From Nitrospirota bacterium (GTDB lineage: Bacteria; Nitrospirota; UBA9217), in assembly GCA_963840455.1 (NCBI GenBank), contig CAWIYV010000009.1, positions 224,001 through 288,000 of the forward strand: a stretch of DNA of 64,000 nt, in the 5' to 3' direction. A program made the position numbers and the translations under genes. The notes under the pieces were generated by a model, which saw only the letters and a list, made by a program, of their open reading frames with translations, had not been told where the DNA came from and ran no database searches. Positions 33,946 through 57,726 of this stretch are shown here, in pieces (position 1 is the first letter of the stretch; every line of letters begins with the position of its first letter).

Positions 33946-34042
33946 TTAAGGAATGCTCTGTTTAAACAGGGGGCGCGGGGCTGACAACAGCTCAACGCCC
34001 AGGGAGTCGCATGTCAAACATGGGGTACAGGAAACAACTGCT

Positions 34043-37000
34043 ATGCCGATAAAAAAAGATGACTCACTGCTCCGGACACTCGTAAAGCGCTGCCTCTGGA
34101 TGGTCCTATGGCTTTGCGGCGCCTTCCTGGTGATCTGTCCGGATAGCCTATGGGCCGCTTCCATCACCGGCAATGTCTTCGAAGATATCAACTACGGCGG
34201 TGGAGCAGGACGGAACTGGGCGACCGCTTCCGGCAACGGCGGCCAGACGCGCCCGAACGCCCGGGTTGAGTTGTTCAACGACAACGGGCGCATTTGTGAC
34301 ATCAGTCACCACGAATGCCGCCGGAAATTACTCCTTTCTCGCTCAAATTGCCGCAAATAGGAACTGGATCGTCCGCGTTGTCAGTTCGAGTGTTACTTCG
34401 TCGCGCACCGGGTATGTGGCCGGACTCCTCCCGGTGATGACCTTCCGGACAAACGCCTCTACGGGCACGGCAGTGGACGTGACGGACTACGTCGGGGGCC
34501 TCGATCCGACCACGGCGGACGCGGGGCCTGCGGCGGCGGGATGGATACTGAATGCTGCGACGGGCGTCTTCTCCGGACCCGGCGCCTCAGGCAAGGCGCA
34601 TGCGTTCGCGGCGGTCATAACGGACCCGGGCGCGGCCGCGACCGCCAATGTCAACTTCGGTTGGAACTTCAACACGATCGTGAACACGAACGACACCGGC
34701 CAGGGTTCGCTGCGTCAGTTCATTCTCAACAGCAACGCGCTGGGCAATGCCGGACTGGCCATTCAGGGCCAGCCCGCCGGCCAGGACGTGTCCGTGTTCA
34801 TGATCAGCGACGGTCTGGCTCATCCCGGCCTGCGCGCGGGGCTGGCAAATCTGCTCAGCGCGGGAGTCGCGGTGATCACCCCCGCGACCGCGCTGCCGGC
34901 CGTGACGGATGCGAACACGACCATCGATGGCACGACCCAGACCGTCAACGTCGGCAACACCAACGCGGTGGTGCTGGGAACCGGAGGCACCGTCGGCGTG
35001 GATGGACTTGCGCTCTCCACGGTCCCGGGACCGGAGGTTGAGATCGCCGGCCCGGGGACGCTGGCGAACGGACTGCTGATCCAGGCCAACAATGCCATCG
35101 TGCGCGGCCTCTCGATCTATGGCTTCGGCAGCGTGGTCGGCGACGCCGGTGTCCGGGTCGACGCCTTCACGGGCGCACTGATCGAAGGCAATGTGCTGGG
35201 TTCGCGTGCGACATCGTTCACTGATCCCGGTGTGGTCCAGCGCAATCAGGCAGGCGTCTCCTCCGCGGGCGGCATCAGCGGCATCGTGCGCAACAACCTG
35301 GTCGGATTCGGCCGCGTCGTTGGCGTGAGACTGGATACGGGAAGCACAGGCTGGGTGGTCACCGGCAACGAGATCCGCGACAGCGGCATGGATACTGCCG
35401 ATGGCGACGGCATCACGATAAACGCCGCGCCGACGAACACGGCGACCGGCAATCTGATCACGGGATCCTCGAGCCAGGCCATAGCCGTGACCGTCGCGGG
35501 TGCGACCGGCAATACGTTCACCAATAACACAGTGACGGGCAACGGTGTCGGCATTACGACAGGCCTTGTGCAGAGCTCGGCCGTTGTCCTTCGGTCTGGC
35601 GCAGCGTCGACCACGCTGGACCGGAACGTCATCCGCGCCAATTACGGAGCCGGCGTGCAGGCGAACAACGGCTCCACGGGTACGCGCATGACGCGGAATT
35701 CGTTCGCCCTGAACGGCACCATCGCGGCCCGGAACGGCAGCGGTACGACGGGGCAGATCGCCATCGATCTTAATTCACCAACTGACGACATCAACTTAGG
35801 AACGGTTCCCTTCTACACCCTGAACGATGCCGGCGATGCGGACGCCGGGGGCAACGGTCTGCTCAATTTCCCGGTCATCACTTCGGCCACGACTATCGGA
35901 GGGAATCTGGTTGTAACGGGTTACGCGCGTCCGGGGTCGCTGGTCGAGCTGTACATCGCCAACCCCGACCCATCGGGGTTCGGGGAGGGCGAGACGTATC
36001 TCCTTACATTGACCGAAGGGGGCACTGGCGCGGGTGGCACCGATCCGTACGCCGACACTGACGCCGGAACGGGAGCTTACGGGCCCGGCGCCATCAACGG
36101 CATCGTCCAGGGCGCCGACACCACCAACCGGTTCACATTCACGCTTCCCATCCCAGGTGGGGTCAGCACCGGCACGCGCCTCACGGCGACTGCGACTCTG
36201 GGAGGCGAGACCTCGGAGTTCGGCGGTCTCGTCACCGTTATGGCCTCGGTTTCGGGGACGGTGTTCGAGGACGTGAACTACGGCGGCGGGGCGGGTCGGG
36301 ACAGGACCACCTCTTCCGGCGTGCCCCGTTCCGCAACGCGGGTAGAGCTGTACAACAATGCCGGCGCCTATGTCAACTTCACCACTACCGACGCCTCGGG
36401 CAACTACATCTTCTCCGGCCTTGCGGCGGGTAATTATACAGTCCGTGTGATCAATGCCACGGTCACTTCGTCCCGCACCGGCTACGTGGCCGGGTTGTTG
36501 CCGGTGCAGACCTACCGCACCAATGCATCGAGCGGTTCAGCCGTAGCCGTAACGGACTACGTCGGCGGCCAGAACCCGTCCGTGGCCGACGCCGGCAACG
36601 GCAGCGCCGGTGCGACCATGAACACTGTCACCGGCGTCTTCACCGCGGGAATCAGCGGAACGGCCCAGTCGATCACCAATGCGACGCTCGGAGCCTCCAG
36701 CGTCACAGGAGTAGATTTTGGATTTAATTTCGACGCCATCGTCAACGTCAATGACAGCGGTCAGGGGAGCCTGCGGCAATTCATCACCAACGCCAACACG
36801 CTCGGCGGTGACGCTTCGCTGGTCCAATCAGGACTGGTTGCCGCCAAAGAGAACGCCGTCTTCATGATCTCCAACGGCACCGCGGCAACTGGACTGCGCG
36901 CGGCGAACAACTACTTTGTCGGCGGCGTGGCCACGATCACACCCGCGTCGGCCTTTCCCATCGTTTCCACACCGATGGTCATCGATGCGCAGAAACAGCC

Positions 37001-38156
37001 GGGTTGGAGCAGTACGCCGGTCGTTGAGTTGAACGGGACCGGTGCAGGCGTCGGGAGCAACGGCCTGACCGTGAGCGGCGGCAGCAGCCTCATCAAGGGA
37101 CTTATCATCGACCGTTTCGGCGCCGCCGGTATCTCTCTCTCCGGCGCGGGCGGCACGACGCTCAGCGACAGCATCATCCGCGCCAACAACCGGGGCATCT
37201 ACGACAATGCCGCCAATGATCTCTTTTCCAGGAACGTGATCCAGGGCAACAACGGCGGCAACGGCGAGGGAATCTACCTGGACAGTGGCGCTAGCGGCGC
37301 CAAAGTCTATCACAATACCATCCACGGCAATGCCACCCGGGGGATCAGCCAGGCCGGCGGAAGCGCGACGGTGCGCAACAACCTGATCACCGGCAGCGGC
37401 GGGGTCGGGCTGTTCAGCAGCGGCGGCACCCTGACCGAATCGTACAACGGGATCACCGACGCCATAACCGCCCCGGCTAACACCGGCGGTAGGAGCAATG
37501 TGGCGCTCAGCAGTACCGACCTGAACGTGAACCCTCTCTACATCAACGCCGCTGCGGGTAATTTTACCCTCACCGAATGCGCCAGCCCTGTTATCAACCA
37601 GGGGACCGACCTTGGCGCCGACCAACCGGACATGAACGGCGCAGCTGCAGGTCTCTGGAACAACAACGCCCCGGAGCTGGGAGCCTTTGAGACGACCGGC
37701 AGCTGTACACCAAGCTTGGCCATCGTCAAACAGGCCTGGGACCTGAGCGGAATCGCGCCCCTCGGCTCGCCGGTGACCGCGCCGGCCGGCTCCACCATCA
37801 TCTTCCTGATCTACGTGAAGAACACCACCGCAGGGCCGGTAGCAGACCTGCGGATCAACGACATCCTGGATGAAACCGCTTTCCAGTATGCGTCGGGCAG
37901 TCTGGTTCGGACGCTTGCCGCTTCGCCGCCTGCGGACACGGCCACGGACAAGCAGATTTTCGACGCAACAGCTTCGGGCACAGGCACCGCTCTTTCCGAT
38001 GCCCTGGACGGAGATGTGAGCTCGGCCCTTGACACGGGAGGCCCGGCAGGGGCGGACAGGATAACGATAGGCGCGGTAACAGGCCAGGCCAATGGAATCC
38101 TGACGATCAACGGGCATACCACCTTTGCACTGCAGTTCAAGGTAAAGATCAAGTGA
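34043..38156 (+). CDS. Large secreted adhesin-like protein: 2x (SdrD-B-like + beta-helix) modules and a C-terminal incomplete DUF11-like domain; +1 frameshift at about 34287
   Basis: Signal peptide ..SLWA; ITGNVFEDINYGGGAGR repeated as VSGTVFEDVNYGGGAGR; GQGSLRQFI twice; PbH1-like repeats; removing one G gives ELFNDNGAF, matching ELYNNAGAY in repeat 2. Confidence 0.8.
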
Positions 38157-38197
38157 TGGAATCGGACATTACGGAAAGGCGCATGAAAGGAGCTGAC

Positions 38198-39770
38198 ATG
38201 GTCAAAGAGTATGAAATATTAGTGGTGGATGATGATGAATCCATCTCGCAACTACTGGGCGAGCTGTTGCGCGAGGAAGGTTATCCCGCCACCCGGGCTG
38301 TCGTGCGGCAAAGACATGCGTGATGCCCTTCGTGTCCAGCCCTATCATCTCGTGATGCTCGATCTTATGCTGCCGGACGCGCATGGCATTGAGCTTCTGC
38401 GCGAGATCAAGACCCTGTATCCGAAGACCGACGTGATCATCATGACCAGCAACGCCTCGATAGAAACGGCAGTAAAAGCACTACGGCTGGGGGCCTCCGA
38501 TTACCTTTTCAAACCCTTCGACGACGTGAATGTTGTATCCCACGTAATCGGTAAGGCGTTTGAGAAGCGGCAGATCGCAGATGAAAACGAACGCCTGCAT
38601 CAGAAACTCAAGGCAAAATCCGCAGACCTGGAATCCTCGGTAAGGCGATTGACCTCGCTCAACAATGCCGGCCGGACGCTGCATTCCATGCTGAACATAA
38701 AAGAGCTCTTTGTGGTCACCACCCAGCTCATAGCCTCGGAATTGAAGGCAAAGAGGGTCTCGCTGATGATCCTGAACAAGGCGACGAATGAGCTTGCGAT
38801 CGAGGCCTCAGTGGGGTTGGATGAGCAGATTGCGCAAACTGTCCGCGTTCCCCTCGGGGGAGGCATAGCAGGGTGGGTGGCCAGGGAAGGCAAGGCACTT
38901 CTTGTGGAAGACATTGAGCACGACGACCGATTCAAAAGAAGCCCGGACGGCAAGGGTTATGATACCAACTCCTTCATCTCAGCCCCGCTCCTGCTCAGCG
39001 TCCCGATCCAGTTTCAGAACAAAATCGTAGGCGTTATCAACATCAACAACAAAGTAGGCGGCGGCGTTTTTACCACGGCTGATCTCGAATTCGTAAGTAC
39101 CCTGGCCAGCCAGGCGGCAATTGCCATTGAAAATGGCCGCATATTCGAAAAGCTCAAAGCAATACACATGGAGGTGATCACGGCGCTCGCTGACGCGCTG
39201 GAAGCGAAAGACGTAACCACCGGACACCACAGTCTTCGTCTCATGCACCTGGCCGGACAGGTTGCCGAACGGCTCGATCTCGATGACAAGGCACAGGAGC
39301 GACTTCGCTATGCCGCAGTGCTCCACGATATCGGCAAAATCGGCGTACCGGAACGGATACTCCAAAAGCGCGGAAAGCTGACATCGGAAGAATTTGAAGA
39401 AATCTATAAACACCCGCTCCTGGGGGCGACGATCGTAAAAAAAGTAGCCTTTCTGTCGTCAGTGGCGCCCGTTATTCTGGCGCACCACGAGCGGCTCGAC
39501 GGGAGGGGTTATCCATACGGTATATCGGGAGACGCAATACCCATGGAAGCGCGGATCGTGTCGGTGATGGATTCTTTCGACGCCATGACTTCGGACCGGC
39601 CGTACAGAAAGGCCCTGGGCAAGGCGTACGCGATCAATGAGCTGGTGGCGCGTGCAGGGAGCCAGTTCGATCCACATGTCGTAGAGGCGTTTCTGGCTGT
39701 ACTTCAAGAGAACGAGAAGGATGCTGTCCAATGGGATCACCTGGACGTTTCGATGCCATGGACAGGATAA
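38198..39770 (+). CDS. REC-GAF-HD-GYP cyclic-dinucleotide phosphodiesterase; +1 frameshift at about 38292
   Basis: AAGGAG RBS then MVKEYEILVVDDD in one frame, DLMLPD..KPF in the next; LHDIGKIG, HHERLDGRGYP. Confidence 0.85.
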
Positions 39771-39847
39771 CGATCAAGTCGGTAACGGACGCAGCAAGAG
39801 AACGGTTTGAAACTATAAATTAATCTGGATTCAAAAGGAGGAGCAAA

Positions 39848-40465
39848 ATGAGAACCACAAGTAGAGTTTATGGATTGGCCCTGTGTCTGACGTTCATCAT
39901 ATCCGCCTGGGGTTCGGCCGGCATGGCGGCGACGAACACGGCCACGGACCCGGGCGGCGGCGGCGTGGCCCTGACCGCGTCCGGAGCCGTGACGGTGAAT
40001 TCGACGGCCTTGCAGCTGGTAAAGCAGGTATGGACCACTGCCGGCGCGTGCCTGGCAAGCTCGCCGGCCGACGCCACGTGTAACGGCAGCGCCACCACCA
40101 TTACCGTTCCCGTGAACACCCAGCTCAAGTTCGTCATCTTTGTCAAGAACGCCACGAACCTCGCCCTGAACGATGTCCGTTTCCAGGATACGCTGGATAT
40201 AACTCCCACGGGGTTCACGTACGTAGCAGGTTCGCTCAAGTATGACGGCAATCAATTGGACACGGCAACGCTTGCGCAGATCTACGCCGCTGTTGATGGC
40301 GGTACGGTCGAGACCGACGCGGTTGATGCGGGAGTAGGGCGTTATGCATCAATAACCGGCGGCAGCAATCTGACGGTAGGAGCGGTTGTCGGGCAGGTCA
40401 ACGCGGCATTGACTGTTGCCGCGAACAGGACCTTTGCTCTTGAGTTCCAGGCGAGAAAGAACTAG
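39848..40465 (+). CDS. Secreted permuted DUF11/CnaB-like protein, putative major pilin, copy 1
   Basis: AAGGAGGAG RBS; signal peptide; ATNTAT..VTV then LVKQ, FVIFVKN, FQDTL, FTYVAGS; ends FALEFQARKN. Confidence 0.8.
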   Translation: MRTTSRVYGLALCLTFIISAWGSAGMAATNTATDPGGGGVALTASGAVTVNSTALQLVKQVWTTAGACLASSPADATCNGSATTITVPVNTQLKFVIFVKNATNLALNDVRFQDTLDITPTGFTYVAGSLKYDGNQLDTATLAQIYAAVDGGTVETDAVDAGVGRYASITGGSNLTVGAVVGQVNAALTVAANRTFALEFQARKN

Positions 40466-40577
40466 CCCTGGGATCAACGGTCATGCAGCCGGGTGAGGCA
40501 AATAGCCCGTTCCTGGTTTTGCAGCAAGAGGACGGTTTGAAGCTATAAATTAATCCGGATTCAAAAGGAGGAGCAAA

Positions 40578-41195
40578 ATGAGAACCACAAGTAGAGTTTA
40601 TGGATTGGCCCTGTGTCTGACGCTCATCATATCCGCCTGGGGTTCGGCCGGCATGGCGGCGACGAACACGGCCACGGACCCGGGCGGCGGCGGCGTGGCC
40701 CTGACCGCGTCCGGAGCCGTGACGGTGAATTCGACGGCCTTGCAGCTGGTAAAGCAGGTATGGACCACTGCCGGCGCGTGCCTGGCAAGCTCGCCGGCCG
40801 ACGCCACGTGTAACGGCAGCGCCACCACCATTACCGTTCCCGTGAACACCCAGCTCAAGTTCGTCATCTTTGTCAAGAACGCCACGAACCTCGCCCTGAA
40901 CGATGTCCGTTTCCAGGATACGCTGGATATAACCCCCACGGGGTTCACGTACGTAGCAGGTTCGCTCAAGTATGACGGCAATCAATTGGACACGGCAACG
41001 CTCGCGCAGATCTACGCCGCTGTTGATGGCGGTACGGTCGAGACCGACGCGGTTGATGCGGGAGTAGGGCGTTATGCATCAATAACCGGCGGCAGCAATC
41101 TGACGGTAGGAGCGGTTGTCGGGCAGGTCAACGCGGCATTGAGTGTTGCCGCGAACAGGACCTTTGCTCTTGAGTTCCAGGCGAGAAAGAACTAG
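40578..41195 (+). CDS. Putative major pilin, copy 2
   Basis: Differs from copy 1 at 2 of 205 aa. Confidence 0.8.
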   Translation: MRTTSRVYGLALCLTLIISAWGSAGMAATNTATDPGGGGVALTASGAVTVNSTALQLVKQVWTTAGACLASSPADATCNGSATTITVPVNTQLKFVIFVKNATNLALNDVRFQDTLDITPTGFTYVAGSLKYDGNQLDTATLAQIYAAVDGGTVETDAVDAGVGRYASITGGSNLTVGAVVGQVNAALSVAANRTFALEFQARKN

Positions 41196-41344
41196 CCCTC
41201 GGATCAACGGTCATGTGATGGACGGAAGCAGCGTTCATGAGCATGACGTAGCGTTTTGTATCGGGACTGCAGCATAAGGAAAGATGCGGAACATGTTCGA
41301 ATCTATTTACATAACGAGCGATCGGTGAGGGCAAAGTGACAGGA

Positions 41345-41959
41345 ATGCCTGTGACTATAGAAGGTCCTCCTCCCTCCAGGAAGGCCTTTGCCCGCGGTCT
41401 CGCGCTGGGTGCGATGATCGTCGTGCTCCTGCTCGGCTGCCCTCTCGCGGCTTTCTCAGCCACGAACACGGCCATTGATCCGGGCGGCGGTAGCATATCG
41501 CTCGTTCCCTCCGGACCGGTGACGGTAAACAGCGTTCAGCTGGCCTTGGTCAAGCAGGCCCGCGATCTTTCCGGCGCCGTTCTGTCAACGGGCGCCAACG
41601 TAACGCCCGGTCAGACGATCTATTTTGTTCTGTATGTCGACAACACCACCGCTTATCCCGCCAACGATATACAAATTATCGATCCATTGGACGAATCCGC
41701 CTTTACCTATCTGATAAACAGCATGGAAACCGCCGTTGTCCCCGCGGGATCCAATGACGCTGCAATATGGGCAGGCGCGTGGTCTTCCCTGTCAGATCTT
41801 CGGGGCGCACCGGATGATCTTGCCTCGATAACGGATAGCGGCGGCCCGGCGGGGCTGGACCGGTTGACGGTCGGTGCAGTTGCAATTCAGGCGAACCAGA
41901 CGTTGAATATTTCCGGCAATACCCTGCGCGCAATACGGTTCAGGGTTACGGTGAACTGA
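41345..41959 (+). CDS. Paralogous permuted DUF11-like protein, putative minor pilin
   Basis: ATNTAIDPGGG..VTVNS, LVKQ, YFVLYVDN, IIDPL, FTYLINS; start may be GTG41336. Confidence 0.8.
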   Translation: MPVTIEGPPPSRKAFARGLALGAMIVVLLLGCPLAAFSATNTAIDPGGGSISLVPSGPVTVNSVQLALVKQARDLSGAVLSTGANVTPGQTIYFVLYVDNTTAYPANDIQIIDPLDESAFTYLINSMETAVVPAGSNDAAIWAGAWSSLSDLRGAPDDLASITDSGGPAGLDRLTVGAVAIQANQTLNISGNTLRAIRFRVTVN

Positions 41960-41961
41960 TA

Positions 41962-52241: not shown

Positions 52242-53206
52242 ATACTGGGGATATCTCGAAAAAACCGGTGCGCATCCTTGTTGCAGACGATGATGAAAGT
52301 CTGCGGTCCGTTCTCAAGCAGGTGCTGAGCATGGACGGCTACGAGGTGAATCTGACAGCGAGTGGCGAAGAAGCATTGGCGGCTTTCAAGAAGGAACCCT
52401 GTTCGCTGATCATCACCGATATCCGGATGGGGAAAATGAGCGGTATACAGCTCCTGCAGGAGGTCAAGCGGCTCCGCCCCGATACACAGGTTATCATTAT
52501 TACCAGCAATGCCACGCTGGACACGGCGATCACCGCCATTCAGGCCGGGGCGTATGACTATCTTACCAAGCCCTTTGACGACATTGCGCTCATATCTTCG
52601 GTGGCGCGCCGGGCAGTTGAAAAGATCCGGCTTATCGAGGAGAACAAAAGCCTGTTAGAGAAACTGAAGCGGAAAAATGAGGAGCTGGAATTCGTCAACT
52701 TGACCCTCAAGGAGCTCACGATCCGCGACGGCCTCACCGGCTTATACAACCATCGTCATTTTCAGGAGACCCTTGCAGTGGAGATCCTCCGGTCCAAGCG
52801 TCACGCAAAAACTTTTTCCCTGGTATTTCTGGATGTGGATTTCTTTAAGCAGTATAACGATACCCACGGACATCTTCATGGCGATGCCGTTCTCGTTGCG
52901 CTGTCGAAGTTGCTGATCGCTGGTCTTCGAAAATCGGATGTCGCCGTCCGCTATGGCGGAGAGGAATTTGTGCTCCTCCTCCCCGAGACATCGAAGGAGA
53001 ACGCCTTTGCCCTCGCCGGGACCATCCGCGAGAAGATCGCCGCCCATCCCTTCCCGGGGCGGGAAACGCAGCCGCAGGGGAAGGTCACGGTCAGCATGGG
53101 GATCGCCGCGTTTCCGGAGGACGGTAGCGACAGTTCCACGCTGCTGCATCGTGCCGATGAAGCACTTTACCAGGCAAAAAATGGCGGAAGAAACAAGGTA
53201 TGCTGA
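52238..53206 (+). CDS. REC-GGDEF diguanylate cyclase
   Basis: DGLTGLYN, DVDFFKQYNDTHGHLHGD, RKSD I-site, RYGGEEF, ADEALYQAK. Confidence 0.93.
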   Translation: MNTGDISKKPVRILVADDDESLRSVLKQVLSMDGYEVNLTASGEEALAAFKKEPCSLIITDIRMGKMSGIQLLQEVKRLRPDTQVIIITSNATLDTAITAIQAGAYDYLTKPFDDIALISSVARRAVEKIRLIEENKSLLEKLKRKNEELEFVNLTLKELTIRDGLTGLYNHRHFQETLAVEILRSKRHAKTFSLVFLDVDFFKQYNDTHGHLHGDAVLVALSKLLIAGLRKSDVAVRYGGEEFVLLLPETSKENAFALAGTIREKIAAHPFPGRETQPQGKVTVSMGIAAFPEDGSDSSTLLHRADEALYQAKNGGRNKVC

Positions 53207-53246
53207 AATTCTTTTAAAAAACTCATGAAAAAACGGGCAAAGAATG

Positions 53247-53338
53247 AAACCACAGAGGTCACGGAGAAAGTGCTGGGTGAATACCTGAATACATTGAGTT
53301 GATCTATCAATAAAATACTCTGTGTTCCCGTGGGTTAA
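53247..53338. repeat. Degenerate REP-like inverted pair
   Basis: aaccacagaggtcacggag ... ctctgtgttcccgtgggtt. Confidence 0.45.
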
Positions 53339-53766
53339 AGGACAAGAACAAAACGGAGCTGTGATAAAAACGGCTCAAAATGGGTATCAAAATACATCAA
53401 CAGTCATATACCATCTATTGGGTATTTACAGAGAGATATCAGGAGATTGCAATAAAACATATACGTTATGGTCTGAGCCCTTTCGCCTGTCACGGCGATA
53501 ATCATTTGCTCAATTCATCAACGTCCCTTGTCATCCCTATATATGAAACATGCTGTGAAGGATTCTTCCTGAAGCATGCAGAGATGAGCAGATCGTCATC
53601 GGTACATACTTTATCTCGTAATTTTGCTTTCTACATCTGCGACTTTTGTATCCTTTCCCACATATCTCATCATATATCTTAAAACCCCCTATGAATTATC
53701 GGAGCTCATTCGTGATCCATGCTATACTTTAAATCATTAGTTCTCGTTCCCATCAATTGTTAGCCT

Positions 53767-53842
53767 CTGATAAAGCCAAACCTTTCATGAGAAAGGGGCG
53801 GAAAACCACGGGTCTTGCTATAAGATAGCCGAGCTACCGAAG
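53767..53842 (+). ncRNA. GEMM-I (c-di-GMP-I) riboswitch
   Basis: GAUAAAGCCAAACC..GG..CGGAAAACCACGGGUCU..AGAUAGCCGAGCUACCGA. Confidence 0.8.
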
Positions 53843-53918
53843 GATGTAAGTCTTCGTGTTCGCTCGACTCTTTTATCAGTTCAGTATAGTGATCGAAGAA
53901 GCAAACAAGGAGGTAAGC

Positions 53919-55289
53919 ATGAAACAGTTACAAAAAGCAATTATCGACGAGTTCAAAGCGCACTTCAGGGGGAGTGTGCTTCTTCCTGGCGACGCGGGCT
54001 ATAACGAGGTACGCCAGATTTGGAACGCCATGATCGACCGCAGGCCTGGGCTGATTGCCCGCTGCACCTCGCCTGAAGATGTTGTCCAGGCCGTCCGGTT
54101 CGCGCGCAAGCACAACCTCCTTGTTTCGATCAGAGGGGGTGGACACAACATCGCGGGCAATGCCGTCTGTGACGACGGCCTCATGATCGATCTTTCGCTG
54201 ATGAAGGGCGTCAAGGTGGACCCGAAGGCCCGCCGGGCGACCGTTGAGCCCGGCTGTACTCTAGCCGACTTCGACATGGCCGCTCAGGTGCATGGCCTCG
54301 CCACGCCGCTGGGTATCAACTCGACCACAGGTGTGGCCGGCCTGACACTCGGCGGCGGCTTCGGCTGGCTAAGCCGAAAATACGGAATGACCGTCGACAA
54401 CCTTCTCTCCGCGGATGTCGTCTCAGCGGATGGCACTCAAGTGCACGCCAGCGAGAAGGAAAATGATGACCTGTTCTGGGGGCTGCGCGGTGGTGGTGGG
54501 AACTTCGGTATTGTCACCAGCTTCGAGTTCCAGCTCCATCCCGTCGGGCCGAATGTGTTAAGCGGCCTCATCGTTTTCCCGTTTGACCAGGCGAAGTCCG
54601 TGCTCACACAGTTCGCTCGTTTCACCAAGACGATGCCCGACGAGCTTAACGTTTGGATGGTCACTCGGAAAGCGCCCCCGCTTCCCTTTCTACCCGCGAA
54701 TGTCCACGGGAAAGAGGTTGTCGTGCTCGCACTGTGCTATACGGGTGACCCCACTGAGGGTGAGAAAGTGATAAAACCGCTGCGCGGATTCGGCACAGCG
54801 CACGGAGAGTATATAGGTGTACAGCCGTACACGGCCTGGCAGAAGGCCTTTGATCCGCTCTTGACGCCAGGTGCCCGCAACTACTGGAAGTCGCACAACT
54901 TCGTTCAGCTCAACGAAGGCGCGATAGACATCATCATCGAATTCGCTGGCATGCTGCCGTCACCGCAGACTGAAATCTTCATTGGCACGATCGGAGGTCA
55001 GACAGCCCGCGTAGCGCCCGAAGCAATGGCATACTCGAACCGAGACGCCAATTACGTGATGAACGTGCACGGTCGCTGGGAATCGGCCACTGATGACGAG
55101 CGATGCATCGCTTGGGCGCGCAATTTTTTCGCGAAGTCACAGCCATTTGCCAGCAGCGGCGCATACATAAACTTCCTCACCCAAGACGAGACAGACCGCG
55201 TCGCATTCGCCTACGGGATCATGCGCCGAATGGCATGCAGTGAACGTGCTGCATGCCGCCGGGTTCAGTTTCAACTTTCACGGCGATAA
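53919..55289 (+). pseudogene. FAD-linked BBE/VAO-type oxidoreductase, C-terminus truncated
   Basis: WNAMIDRRP, RGGGHN, LRGGGGNFGIVT, AYINF; homology stops after AYG (about 55219) with no K..YDP.N.F tail. Confidence 0.75.
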
Positions 55290-55437
55290 CGGGGGTGTAA
55301 GCGCCCTGATGATAAGTGCTCAGGCGCTTCGTCGTTCAAGGAAAGGTTGTATTGATCAATGCCAGCCTGACCGGTAAACGAATACGCACGTCATGCCGGC
55401 ATTGACGATCAAATCCCCCCTGCGGACGCCAATCAAT

Positions 55438-55471
55438 AAAAAAGGAGCTGCAACCATGCAGCTCCTTTTTT
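55438..55471. terminator. Bidirectional intrinsic terminator
   Basis: aaaaaaggagctgca-acca-tgcagctcctttttt between convergent genes. Confidence 0.85.
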
Positions 55472-55533
55472 ACTCCCCATTCATGAATATCTGCACGAGT
55501 CGGCCCAACACGAATCCAATTCGAGAAAAGAGC

Positions 55534-55570
55534 GGGGTCAAATCTATGATTTGATCAAAGATTTGACCCC
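55534..55570. repeat. REP-like palindrome
   Basis: ggggtcaaatct...agatttgacccc. Confidence 0.6.
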
Positions 55571-55695
55571 TTAGGTTGCTATCCCCTGATTACGCCAGAG
55601 AGGGAGAGGGCCTGCAATGTTGCATCCCCTTTACTGGCTCTGCATGCGTGAGCTACTGTCCGGACGACCTGGCGTGGGGCATGCATTCTTTTCTG

Positions 55696-57726
55696 CTAGA
55701 TGGTCTTCGAGACCTCCATTGAATATCCGCTTTCCTGCCCCAGGGTATCGACGTCCGTCACGACAAAATAGTAAGTGCCCGGAGCAAGGTTCAAAGTCTT
55801 CGTTATGGTCGCGGTCCCGGGATTGGTGACGCTCACGGTTTGCGTATAGGACTGCGATGACGTTCCATAATATATCTTGTACAGGGACAGGTCGGTTGCC
55901 GCGTTCAACGGAGTCCCGTCTTCCCGCGTCGTCGGCGCATTCCATGTTAACGTTACGCTCCCACCACCGGTGGCACCGGTGACAGTAAGCGCAGTAGCCC
56001 CGGAAACACTTCCTGATGTCGCCCGGATCGTGGTCGATCCTGCCGCCACCGACGTGGCGAGGCCGTTGGAACCTGCAGCGTTGCTGATCGTCGCCACAGC
56101 GGTATTGGAGGAGCTCCAGGTCGCCGTTGTCGTCAGGTTCTGCGTCGTACCGTCGGAGTAGGCCCCCGTCGCCGTGAACTGCTGGGTCGTCCCGCTGGCG
56201 ATCGAAGCCGAAAGAGGCGATACCGAGATCGATGTGAGCGTTGCCGCCGTTATGGTCAGGGTGGTCGAACCCGAGATGCTTCCCGATGTCGCCCGGATCG
56301 TGGTCGATCCTGCCGCCACCGACGTGGCGAGGCCGTTGGAACCTGCCGCATTGCTGATCGTCGCCGCGGCGGTATTGGAGGAGCTCCAGGTCGCCGTTGC
56401 CGTCAGGTTCTGCGTTGTACCGTCGGAGTAGGTCCCCGTCGCCGTGAACTGCTTGGTGGTCCCCTTGGCGATGCTCGGATTGGCCGGAGTGACTGCGATG
56501 GAGACAAGCGTTGTCGCCGTTATGGTCAGGGTGGTCGAACCCGAGATGCTTCCCGATGTTGCCTGGATCGTGGTCGATCCTGCCGCCACCGACGTGGCGA
56601 GGCCGTTGGAACCTGCCGCATTGCTGATCGCAGCGACTCCCGTATTGGTTGAGCTCCAGGTCGCTGCTGCCGTCAGGTTCTGCGTCGTGCCGTCAGAGTA
56701 AGATCCTGTCGCGGTGAACTGTCTCGTCGTGCCCAGCGCGATGCTCGGGTTGGCCGGAGTGACTGCGATGGAGACAAGCGTTGTCGCCGTTATGGTCAGG
56801 GTGGTCGAACCCGAGATGCTTCCCGATGCCGCCCGGATCGTGGTCGATCCTGCCGCCGCCGACCTGGCAAGGCCGTTGGAACCCGCCGCATTGCTGATCG
56901 TAGCCGCGGCGGTATTGGAGGAGCTCCAGGTCACCGCCGCCGTCAGGTTCTGAGTCGTATTGTCCGAGAAGGTTCCCGTGGCGGTGAACTGACGGGACAA
57001 TCCAAGCGCGATGCTCACATTGGCCGGCGTTACGGCAAGGGACACGAGCGTTGCCGGTGTCACCGTAAGGGTGGTCGAACCCGAGATGCTCCCCGACGTC
57101 GCCGTGATCGTCGTCGAACCTGAGGCTGCCGAGGTGGCCAGACCGTTGGAACCCGCCGCATTGCTTATCGCAGCGACACCCGTGTTGGAGGAGCTCCAGG
57201 TCACCGCCGCCGTCAGGTTCTGAGTCGTATTGTCCGAGAAGGTTCCCGTAGCGGTGAACTGTTGCACCGTACCCTTGGCGATGCTCGGGTTGGTTGGGGT
57301 GACCGTGATAGCAACGAGCGTTGCCGGTGTTACCGTCAGGGTGGTGGAACCGGATAAGTCTCCCGAGGTCGCCGAAATCGTTGCTTTGCCGACACGCTTG
57401 CCGGTTACTTTTATGCGTCCGGGGGTGTTGACCGCGGCTGCCGTCACAAGGCCGCTGATCTCTGCTACGGTCGTATCAGATGAACTCCAGGTTAATGATG
57501 CGGTCAGGTCTTTCGTCGTGCCATTCGAATAGCTGCCGATGGCCGTGAAATCCTGACTGGTGCCGGTTGCTGCCGCTGGATTCGTAGGTGACAACGAGAG
57601 GGAAACAAGCTGTCCATTGTCATTCGCTGCGTTTACCGGGACTTCGCTGAGCCCCCCGCCGCATCCCGCCAGGCCGATCAGGATCAGGAATGACACGAGC
57701 ATGAAGCGTATTCTGTTCTGGATCAT
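55696..57726 (-). CDS. Lipoprotein with six Big_2 Ig repeats and a C-terminal FnIII-like domain
   Basis: Lipobox LAGC; about 90-aa repeats SIAVTP..QFTATG.YSD..TWSSSN; LTWNAP..YKIYYG..YYFVVT. Confidence 0.9.
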   Translation of the reverse strand: MIQNRIRFMLVSFLILIGLAGCGGGLSEVPVNAANDNGQLVSLSLSPTNPAAATGTSQDFTAIGSYSNGTTKDLTASLTWSSSDTTVAEISGLVTAAAVNTPGRIKVTGKRVGKATISATSGDLSGSTTLTVTPATLVAITVTPTNPSIAKGTVQQFTATGTFSDNTTQNLTAAVTWSSSNTGVAAISNAAGSNGLATSAASGSTTITATSGSISGSTTLTVTPATLVSLAVTPANVSIALGLSRQFTATGTFSDNTTQNLTAAVTWSSSNTAAATISNAAGSNGLARSAAAGSTTIRAASGSISGSTTLTITATTLVSIAVTPANPSIALGTTRQFTATGSYSDGTTQNLTAAATWSSTNTGVAAISNAAGSNGLATSVAAGSTTIQATSGSISGSTTLTITATTLVSIAVTPANPSIAKGTTKQFTATGTYSDGTTQNLTATATWSSSNTAAATISNAAGSNGLATSVAAGSTTIRATSGSISGSTTLTITAATLTSISVSPLSASIASGTTQQFTATGAYSDGTTQNLTTTATWSSSNTAVATISNAAGSNGLATSVAAGSTTIRATSGSVSGATALTVTGATGGGSVTLTWNAPTTREDGTPLNAATDLSLYKIYYGTSSQSYTQTVSVTNPGTATITKTLNLAPGTYYFVVTDVDTLGQESGYSMEVSKTI

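Follow-up and report, generated by a model that had tools for sequence, protein, structure and literature searches.

The closest mechanistic precedent for the system described here is BsaA of Clostridium perfringens, a member of the TasA family that assembles by "donor-strand exchange and lock". In BsaA, Asn35 of the donor strand bonds Lys74 of the next monomer with Glu56 as the catalyst, and alanine mutants lose the oligomers (PMC11580942). The present work deals with pilin W1, a small protein encoded in a stretch of 64,000 nucleotides (nt) of Nitrospirota DNA (contig CAWIYV010000009.1, positions 224,001 to 288,000), which is called the window in what follows, and with the locus in which its gene lies. 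Like BsaA, W1 has an N-terminal donor Asn, and an acceptor Lys with a candidate acidic catalyst, and it would assemble without a sortase. However, BsaA belongs to an unrelated fold and family, comes from a Gram-positive host and undergoes SipW processing, and the portion of the source consulted describes neither a tip nor an outer-membrane anchor with matching half-domains (PMC11580942). No TasA, camelysin or BsaA-family match was found for the locus proteins in Pfam and NCBIfam.

The second system for comparison is the DUF11 domain, also called CLIPPER, which has been solved in a fibrillar adhesin of Acinetobacter silvestris (9IFR). In this domain Lys715 is bonded to Asn806 beside Asp748, the order along the chain being Lys, Asp, Asn. 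The fold has nine strands; Asn806 stands on strand 8 and is followed by strand 9, with a CTTC disulfide (Cys818-Cys821). Without the Lys, the domain melts at about 45 instead of about 80 degrees C (PMC12617251). W1 shares with the DUF11 family the core motifs around Asn101 and Asp114 and the same three residue types. CLIPPER domains frequently contain disulfides and form surface stalks of diderm bacteria that include an OmpA-like anchoring domain, and the CLIPPER survey, in the portion consulted, covers intramolecular bonds only (PMC12617251). The difference lies in the arrangement: in CLIPPER the Lys, Asp and Asn belong to one domain and the bond is intramolecular, whereas the pilin hairpin precedes the Lys strand and the C-terminal domain is truncated.

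In chaperone-usher pili (type 1 and P pili, for instance) an N-terminal extension of each subunit completes the preceding subunit, the adhesin comes first and a terminator last, and the fibre is held in the outer membrane. The principles of these pili are summarised in PMC11821415. They differ from the fibre proposed here in being non-covalent and in needing a periplasmic chaperone and an usher, neither of which was recognised among the scanned neighbours. In the SpyTag/SpyCatcher pair, a reactive peptide docks as a strand into a truncated immunoglobulin-like (Ig-like) domain that contributes the partner residue and a catalytic acid. Spy-type pairs derive from CnaB-type domains cut in the laboratory, while the split is apparently natural here, affects the CnaA-like DUF11 domain and is accompanied by natural acceptor-only and donor-only proteins. 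The archaeal thread of Sulfolobus acidocaldarius (Saci_0406) combines strand complementation by an N-terminal tail with a proposed spontaneous covalent link; that link is not of the Lys-Asn kind, and the protein is archaeal, lacks any Pfam domain and is heavily glycosylated (PMC9715654). No account of a DUF11/CLIPPER domain that one chain completes and ligates for another was found in the literature searched, which did not include supplements; similar cases may stand in Tables S2-S5 of PMC12617251 or in the supplement of PMC11580942. Locking strand exchange by an isopeptide bond is already known; the new elements are this fold, the type of host and the division into tip, pilin and anchor.

Our reading of the locus is that its small subunits probably polymerise by trans complementation with a Lys-Asn lock. 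The wider claim is that the window encodes an undescribed covalent, sortase-independent pilus of a diderm bacterium, in which a fibrillar-adhesin stalk has been cut within each DUF11 domain and is re-ligated extracellularly via Lys-Asn bonds, giving a covalent chain from anchor to tip; our belief in this claim is evenly divided. The residue order, its conservation, the truncation of the domain, the three protein classes and the synteny were established directly in this analysis. That the hairpin works from one chain to another is best supported by the existence of the three protein classes, namely pilins that have both halves of the joint and neighbours that have only one of them. The parts of W1 are as follows.

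39848..40465, + strand: ORF (open reading frame) of pilin W1, the subject of study; 205 amino acids (aa), predicted secreted.
39848..39928, + strand: W1 signal peptide, residues 1-27, from sequence features and a conserved Ala/Val-x-Ala.
39929..40003, + strand: W1 donor hairpin, Ala28-Ser52, with Asn30 at 39935-39937, from conservation.
40004..40462, + strand: W1 acceptor domain, Thr53-Asn205, with the Lys59 strand, the Cys68-Cys78 loop and the Asp114 motif.

Residues 1-27 of W1 look like a Sec signal peptide. They have a basic start, a hydrophobic core and, at 25-27, an Ala/Val-x-Ala that is conserved in the family; the call presumes the usual -3/-1 rule. Cleavage before Ala28 makes Asn30 the third residue of the predicted mature protein. 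The interval to which a first-pass annotation of this DNA had drawn attention, 39929..40465, extends from the Ala28 codon to the stop codon and corresponds to the mature part, and the residues named in it (Ala28, Asn30, Ser52, Lys59, Cys68, Cys78 and Asp114) are all found in the ORF 39848..40465. The codons can be read directly for Asn30 (39935-39937, aac), Lys59 (40022-40024, aag) and Asp114 (40187-40189, gat), as well as for Cys68 (40049-40051) and Cys78 (40079-40081). A scan of 39650-42100 for consensus promoters and terminators gave no signal exceeding shuffles.

The assignment of W1 to DUF11 appears weak but real. W1 scores 25.3 bits against NCBIfam TIGR01451 (DUF11/CLIPPER; cut-off 24) over residues 82-134. 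Pilin W2, its tandem duplicate, scores the same, and the more distant paralogue W3 stays under the cut-off with 16.5 bits. In the Pfam scan, PF01345 was reported for neither W1 nor W2 and reached 13.8 bits in W3 (cut-off 24.6). With a local hidden Markov model (HMM) built from 75 canonical tandem DUF11 repeats, residues 82-161 of W1 match at E 7e-12, with Asp114 on the conserved Asp of the repeat. Asp114 falls on the canonical Asp again when the pilin profile is compared by hhalign with the canonical DUF11 domains of the anchor and its homologues (core P 9e-5). The role of likely catalyst that had been proposed for Asp114 is thus consistent with its position. The same comparison places ..LQLVKQV.. 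on ..IELRKSA.., that is, Lys59 on Lys346 of the anchor, weakly (P 0.04). Searches of the PDB by sequence with W1, W3 and the profile of alignment A1 as queries returned chance-level matches only (best E 0.11), and one such match of W3, to a sortase (E 0.12), was discarded as chance. The Atlas model of the homologue P0087 is nearest to DUF11/DUF7507 clusters, with template-modelling (TM) values of 0.47-0.58, which is taken as a lead only.

With respect to the order of the three residues, the pilins read Asn, Lys, Asp, against Lys, Asp, Asn in the solved DUF11 domain. No succession of Lys, Asp and Asn within one DUF11 domain occurs in W1; what the pilins have is an N-terminal donor segment with a conserved Asn, and a Lys and an acidic residue in the body. 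The last strand of W1, ..TFALEFQARKN, is also its C-terminus, and the chain stops at the point where a canonical domain goes on into a loop and the Asn strand. Among small homologues whose match extends to the last position of the family profile, the domain stops at most 3 aa from the C-terminus in 52 of 52; among large ones of this kind it does so in 47 of 48. The distance from Asn to Lys is 29 residues in 130 of 164 pilins. At the junctions of canonical tandem DUF11 repeats, the Asn of one repeat and the Lys of the next are 31 residues apart in 14 of 21 cases (range 30-37). This similarity, which agrees with the earlier remark that the hairpin meets the Lys strand as consecutive repeats meet each other, makes the pilin read as a tandem stalk cut within, and not between, its domains. 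The same annotation had presented W1 as a circularly permuted DUF11 domain. The altered residue order is as it described, but "split domain" fits the protein better than "circularly permuted". In tandem Ig-like stalks the termini of each domain lie at opposite poles, and a junction of this kind places the hairpin on the previous domain. By analogy, the linker of about 3 residues would be too short for self-complementation.

The conservation of these residues was followed in two sets of sequences. The close set contains 123 sequences, the three pilins of the window and 120 homologues of 50-95% identity. In it Asn30 is kept in 122 sequences, Lys59, Asn101 and Asp114 in all 123, and each cysteine in 122, so that the triad is conserved among homologues, on which the earlier proposal depended. 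The distant set consists of 132 representatives from a library at 50% identity, 56 of them 185-265 aa long. In these 56 small representatives the position of Asn30 is occupied by Asn in 48 and by Leu in 1 and is unaligned in 7, four of which are plainly pieces from the C-terminus of large proteins. Lys59 is kept in each of the 54 that align there, and Asp114 in all 56. In alignment A1 the sole invariant columns are Asn30, Lys59, Asn101 and Asp114, although 48 distant rows were picked for these residues and are not independent.

The two cysteines covary in the representatives: both are present in 42, one in 4 and neither in 49. This pattern is in line with the disulfide previously suggested for C68-C78, and it is compatible with, though no proof of, an optional loop behind the Lys strand that a disulfide would staple. 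The donor hairpin is the best-conserved segment of the pilins, since W1 and W3 are identical at 18 of 25 positions there and at 39 of 125 elsewhere; between distant pairs identity is 45% in the hairpin and 35% in the rest. Such conservation between paralogues is expected if the hairpin has to fit other subunits. Taken together, most of the sequence comparisons, though not the direct profile tests of hairpin homology, support the interpretation of the first-pass annotation, that of a donor peptide and an acceptor body that could form a ligation pair.

Two further pilin genes follow W1.

40578..41195, + strand: pilin W2, tandem duplicate of W1; the proteins differ at F16L and T189S.
41336..41959, + strand: pilin W3, 207 aa, of a second subtype that lacks the cysteine loop; Asn44, Lys73 and Asp116.

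W1 and W2, together with their upstream regions (39791-41250), form a 730-nt tandem duplication whose first 300 nt, ribosome-binding region included, are 99% identical. W3 is 35% identical to W1 and has likewise 29 residues between its Asn and its Lys. The W3 subtype adjoins the anchor gene in the window and in the loci L008 and L013.

The second class of proteins possesses the acceptor domain but not the donor hairpin. In the window it is represented by a putative tip adhesin.

34043..38156, + strand: putative tip adhesin gene (beta-helix, NosD-like, SdrD_B), with a 1327-aa body and a frame break near 34280-34290.
37710..38156, + strand: acceptor-only C-terminal domain of the tip, residues about 1181-1327, with the Lys strand ..AIVKQAW.. 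and the Asp motif ..RINDILD..

In a search of its own genome, the C-terminal domain of the tip matches positions 53-204 of the pilin profile at E 4.8e-34, and positions 54-202 of the family HMM align to tip residues 1181-1325. The domain ends with the protein, and no Asn hairpin stands ahead of it. The distant set includes 59 large representatives (at least 300 aa), 52 of which are matched by the family HMM and 48 of these up to the end of the profile. They carry the domain at the extreme C-terminus, many of them together with beta-helix regions. Lys is found in 37 of 37 aligned and Asp in 53 of 53. The Asn30 column reads gap in 52 of the 59, Ala in 4 and Asn in 3. Of these last three, P0154 and P0158 look by eye like alignment noise and P0197 is a two-unit pilin. 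A donor-like "SATAT" match in several large proteins was rejected, because it belongs to a different motif, ..TATD..G.TSEFS.., that ends the beta-helix part.

The fused protein P0197 (367 aa) consists of a complete pilin unit up to residue 184, with signal peptide, Asn hairpin, Lys and Asp, then a second Asn hairpin (..VLNQTTGG..) and a second acceptor domain that extends to the C-terminus. The second hairpin is found at the place where strands 8-9 of the first unit would be in a canonical domain, as one would expect of adjacent subunits under the trans model.

The third class has the donor hairpin only and is represented by a large putative anchor, encoded directly after W3.

41962..47919, + strand: putative anchor, 1985 aa, with signal peptide, donor hairpin, Ig-like domains, DUF11, OmpA-like domain and an 885-aa end.
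42115..42216, + strand: mature N-terminus of the anchor, donor hairpin, Ile52-Gln53-Asn54 (Asn54 at 42121-42123), ..SATGTIGGS.., then a strand.
42985..43431, + strand: canonical single-chain DUF11 of the anchor, with Lys346, Asp380, Asn455 (..YVNTATA..) and a CxxC last strand.
44206..44493, + strand: OmpA-like peptidoglycan-binding domain, residues 749-844 (PF00691, E 1.9e-23).
45262..47919, + strand: C-terminal 885 aa, probable outer-membrane barrel, ending ..RLQGKY.

Anchors gave no match to the pilin HMM, and in the anchor of the window the domain behind the hairpin has no Lys strand. Using anchor residues 1-260 as query, 23 homologues were found, 17 of which start with an Asn hairpin after the signal peptide; the remaining 6 are partial records or have other N-termini. 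In P0251 and P0265 this hairpin is almost identical to that of a pilin, and the donor Asn is also present in the anchors of G036, G065, G319 and G345. The DUF11 domain of the anchor is canonical (29 bits against PF01345, cut-off 24.6) and is the one sequence of the window locus that matches 9IFR (E 0.025), with VNKVTA and CTTC of the solved domain aligned to VNTATA and CDQC.

The last 885 aa of the anchor have no match in Pfam or the PDB, and they are probably an outer-membrane barrel. The Atlas clusters closest to the anchor homologue P0258 contain proteins of about 850 aa, some with the automatic name outer membrane protein, again a lead only. This 885-aa family has relatives in 26 of 61 related genomes, among them G000:C11:631431-634094 and G063:C7:6652-12375. 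Its members form part of proteins 1700-4500 aa long, and the module seems to serve fibrillar adhesins in general as their hold on the outer membrane. Some members lack the donor hairpin, such as L025, a paralogue in the same genome, which begins with OmpA-like repeats.

How the subunits fold, insert in trans, become covalently bonded, pass the outer membrane and are oriented during assembly is inferred from these data. W1, W2 and W3 would be exported by Sec, W1 being cut before Ala28. The mature pilin would then present a free N-terminal Asn hairpin, roughly equivalent to strands 8 and 9, followed by a DUF11 body that stops before strand 8. The hairpin would be joined to the Lys strand through about 3 residues, much as successive repeats of a tandem stalk are linked, last strand to first strand, and a junction of this kind suggests that it points away from its own body and enters the open body of a neighbour. 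The hairpin of the proximal subunit would thereby complete the body of the distal subunit (donor-strand complementation), and Asn30 would meet the Lys59 of the neighbour beside Asp114 and form a spontaneous isopeptide bond, as occurs within a CLIPPER domain. The beta-helix tip adhesin, being acceptor only, would cap the distal end. The 1985-aa anchor, being donor only, would cap the proximal end, with its barrel in the outer membrane and its OmpA-like domain bound to peptidoglycan. Acceptor-only and donor-only proteins encoded beside the pilins make sense only with a hairpin that works from chain to chain.

The order tip, pilin(s), anchor is present in the window and in the genomes G065, a Nitrospirota metagenome-assembled genome (MAG), G319 and G345, and it recurs in unrelated phyla. 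In G036 the tip gene is divergently oriented and there is a single pilin gene. In G061 and G063, both gammaproteobacterial MAGs, the pilins lie directly before the anchor and giant acceptor proteins are encoded elsewhere, with a frame of up to 4506 aa. The system is rare and patchy. Of 61 related genomes, 3 were found to have it, that of the window among them, and a sample of 401 genomes from the phylum yielded 4. The search found none in the five other members of the genus, one of which (an assembly of 550 contigs) contains a 95%-identical anchor fragment.

The remaining genes of the neighbourhood are listed here.

38153..39770, + strand: response regulator with receiver, GAF and HD-GYP domains, between tip and pilins.
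48052..53206, + strand: conserved downstream genes, from the domain scan: FecR-like protein with an Ig-like domain (48052-49359), HAMP histidine kinase and two receiver-GGDEF proteins.

The FecR-like membrane protein, which may act in sensing or in assembly, has a C-terminal Glucodextran_B-like Ig-like domain, and its gene accompanies the system. This gene and that of the kinase follow the anchor gene or a giant acceptor gene in L008, L010, L011 and L013; in L008, which belongs to G065, they continue the order after the anchor, and in L015 the FecR-like gene alone is present at the end of the contig. In L010 and L011 the FecR-like gene adjoins that of a giant acceptor protein, and no pilin was seen nearby. 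The regulator has its receiver domain split, ..ILVVDDDES.. being in 38153..38323 and the remainder in 38229..39770, with a frame break near 38300. In the tip gene, the start, the signal peptide and the first SdrD_B-like residues are in 33950..34360 and the other 1327 aa in 34134..38156; contigs of relatives from three public runs (X1, X2 and X3) have one letter fewer or two more at 34280-34283. The breaks may represent either small assembly errors or a decaying copy of the locus; the pilin and anchor genes are intact. With regard to attachment by a sortase, no LPXTG-type sorting signal was seen, as the pilins end in ..QARKN or ..RVTVN, and no sortase was present among the scanned neighbours.

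Another locus with this design, though more divergent, lies in the same genome at G000:C1, about 46300-57600 (L026 and L027). It encodes a 1126-aa G8/beta-helix protein whose C-terminal end is a Lys..Asp DUF11-like domain without an Asn strand. Two proteins of 345 and 367 aa have a post-signal Asn strand (..I.N[ST]VSV.Y..) and a C-terminal Lys..Asp DUF11-like domain, and a barrel/OmpA protein has the mature N-terminus ..GTNIINTAAAVY.. The presence of this locus suggests that the principle is widespread.

Several results weigh against the proposed self-ligating fibre. The tandem-repeat HMM placed the N-terminal segment on its own C-terminal part in only 2 of 171 pilins. When the whole pilin profile was aligned by hhalign with a double canonical repeat, the core alone aligned; the hairpin profile alone gave P 0.58 against tandem repeats, and the comparison with the DUF11 domains of the anchors reached P 0.04 in the Lys strand only. 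Three hairpin peptides searched in Pfam with E up to 10 found no family. These profile tests of homology between the hairpin and strands 8-9 were not significant and have low power for a segment of 25 residues, and they are not counted as support. The Pfam scans of the tip, the pilins, the anchor and nine neighbouring ORFs recognised no chaperone, usher or other export gene, and the model leaves unexplained how the subunits cross the outer membrane and avoid polymerising in the periplasm. The regulator adds a second frame break to that of the tip gene within 4 kb. Finally, the donor Asn is replaced in three natural members: by Leu in P0122, by Ser in the anchor of G061 (L015, 1462-7356) and by Thr in the anchor-proximal pilin of G345 (L024, 7291-7932). 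The lock is therefore not universal.

These three replacements are also what a fibre held by donor-strand complementation without any covalent bond would allow, the triad being kept for packing or hydrogen bonding. In BsaA, oligomers of the N35A mutant resist sodium dodecyl sulfate (SDS) until heated (PMC11580942), which indicates that strand exchange alone can be stable. However, the pilin triad consists of the residue types that form and catalyse the bond in the solved DUF11 domain, Asp114 and, weakly, Lys59 align to the canonical positions, and Lys and Asp are invariant in the acceptor-only proteins too. A near-invariant buried set of Asn, Lys and Asp is hard to ascribe to packing alone, and we consider a wholly non-covalent fibre quite unlikely. 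That all three residues lie within one chain would also suit a monomeric, truly circularly permuted DUF11 protein, with the hairpin inserted in cis and an intramolecular isopeptide bond, serving as a soluble matrix or surface protein. This reading would leave without partner the acceptor-only domains, with their conserved Lys and Asp, and the donor-only anchors. The spacing between Asn and Lys equals that of an inter-repeat junction, which in tandem Ig-like stalks would put the hairpin on the previous domain, and the second hairpin of P0197 stands after a unit and not before it. A cis monomer is accordingly judged very improbable.

A different alternative accepts the covalent joint and limits its use to a short complex with a set number of parts (adhesin, a single adaptor pilin or a few of them, and anchor), in which the adhesin is covalently attached and no open-ended pilus is built. 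The single pilin gene of G036 would be sufficient for such a complex, and the giant acceptor proteins encoded far from any pilin in some genomes point in the same direction. The barrel domain also occurs in single-chain proteins of relatives, indicating that the anchor family normally carries its own stalk. On the other hand, each pilin has both donor and acceptor, so that its sequence sets no bar to self-addition, and the tandem duplication of W1 is as expected for a major subunit. Restriction to a fixed complex seems unlikely to us, and polymerisation by trans complementation with a Lys-Asn lock is the reading we retain.

If this reading is true, the window would provide a natural ligation pair with no relation to the Spy, Snoop and Dog systems, which derive from CnaB; the C-terminal domain of the tip would be the natural Catcher, and the N-terminal stretch of roughly 25 residues in anchors and pilins the natural Tag. 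It would raise the question of how self-reactive subunits cross the outer membrane with no recognisable usher among the scanned neighbours. It would also account for the truncated DUF11 ends of many giant beta-helix adhesins of environmental Proteobacteria and Nitrospirota. DUF11 would add an independent fold, the second one, to those that secure donor-strand exchange by an isopeptide bond formed spontaneously, and covalent pili would no longer be limited to sortase-bearing Gram-positive bacteria.

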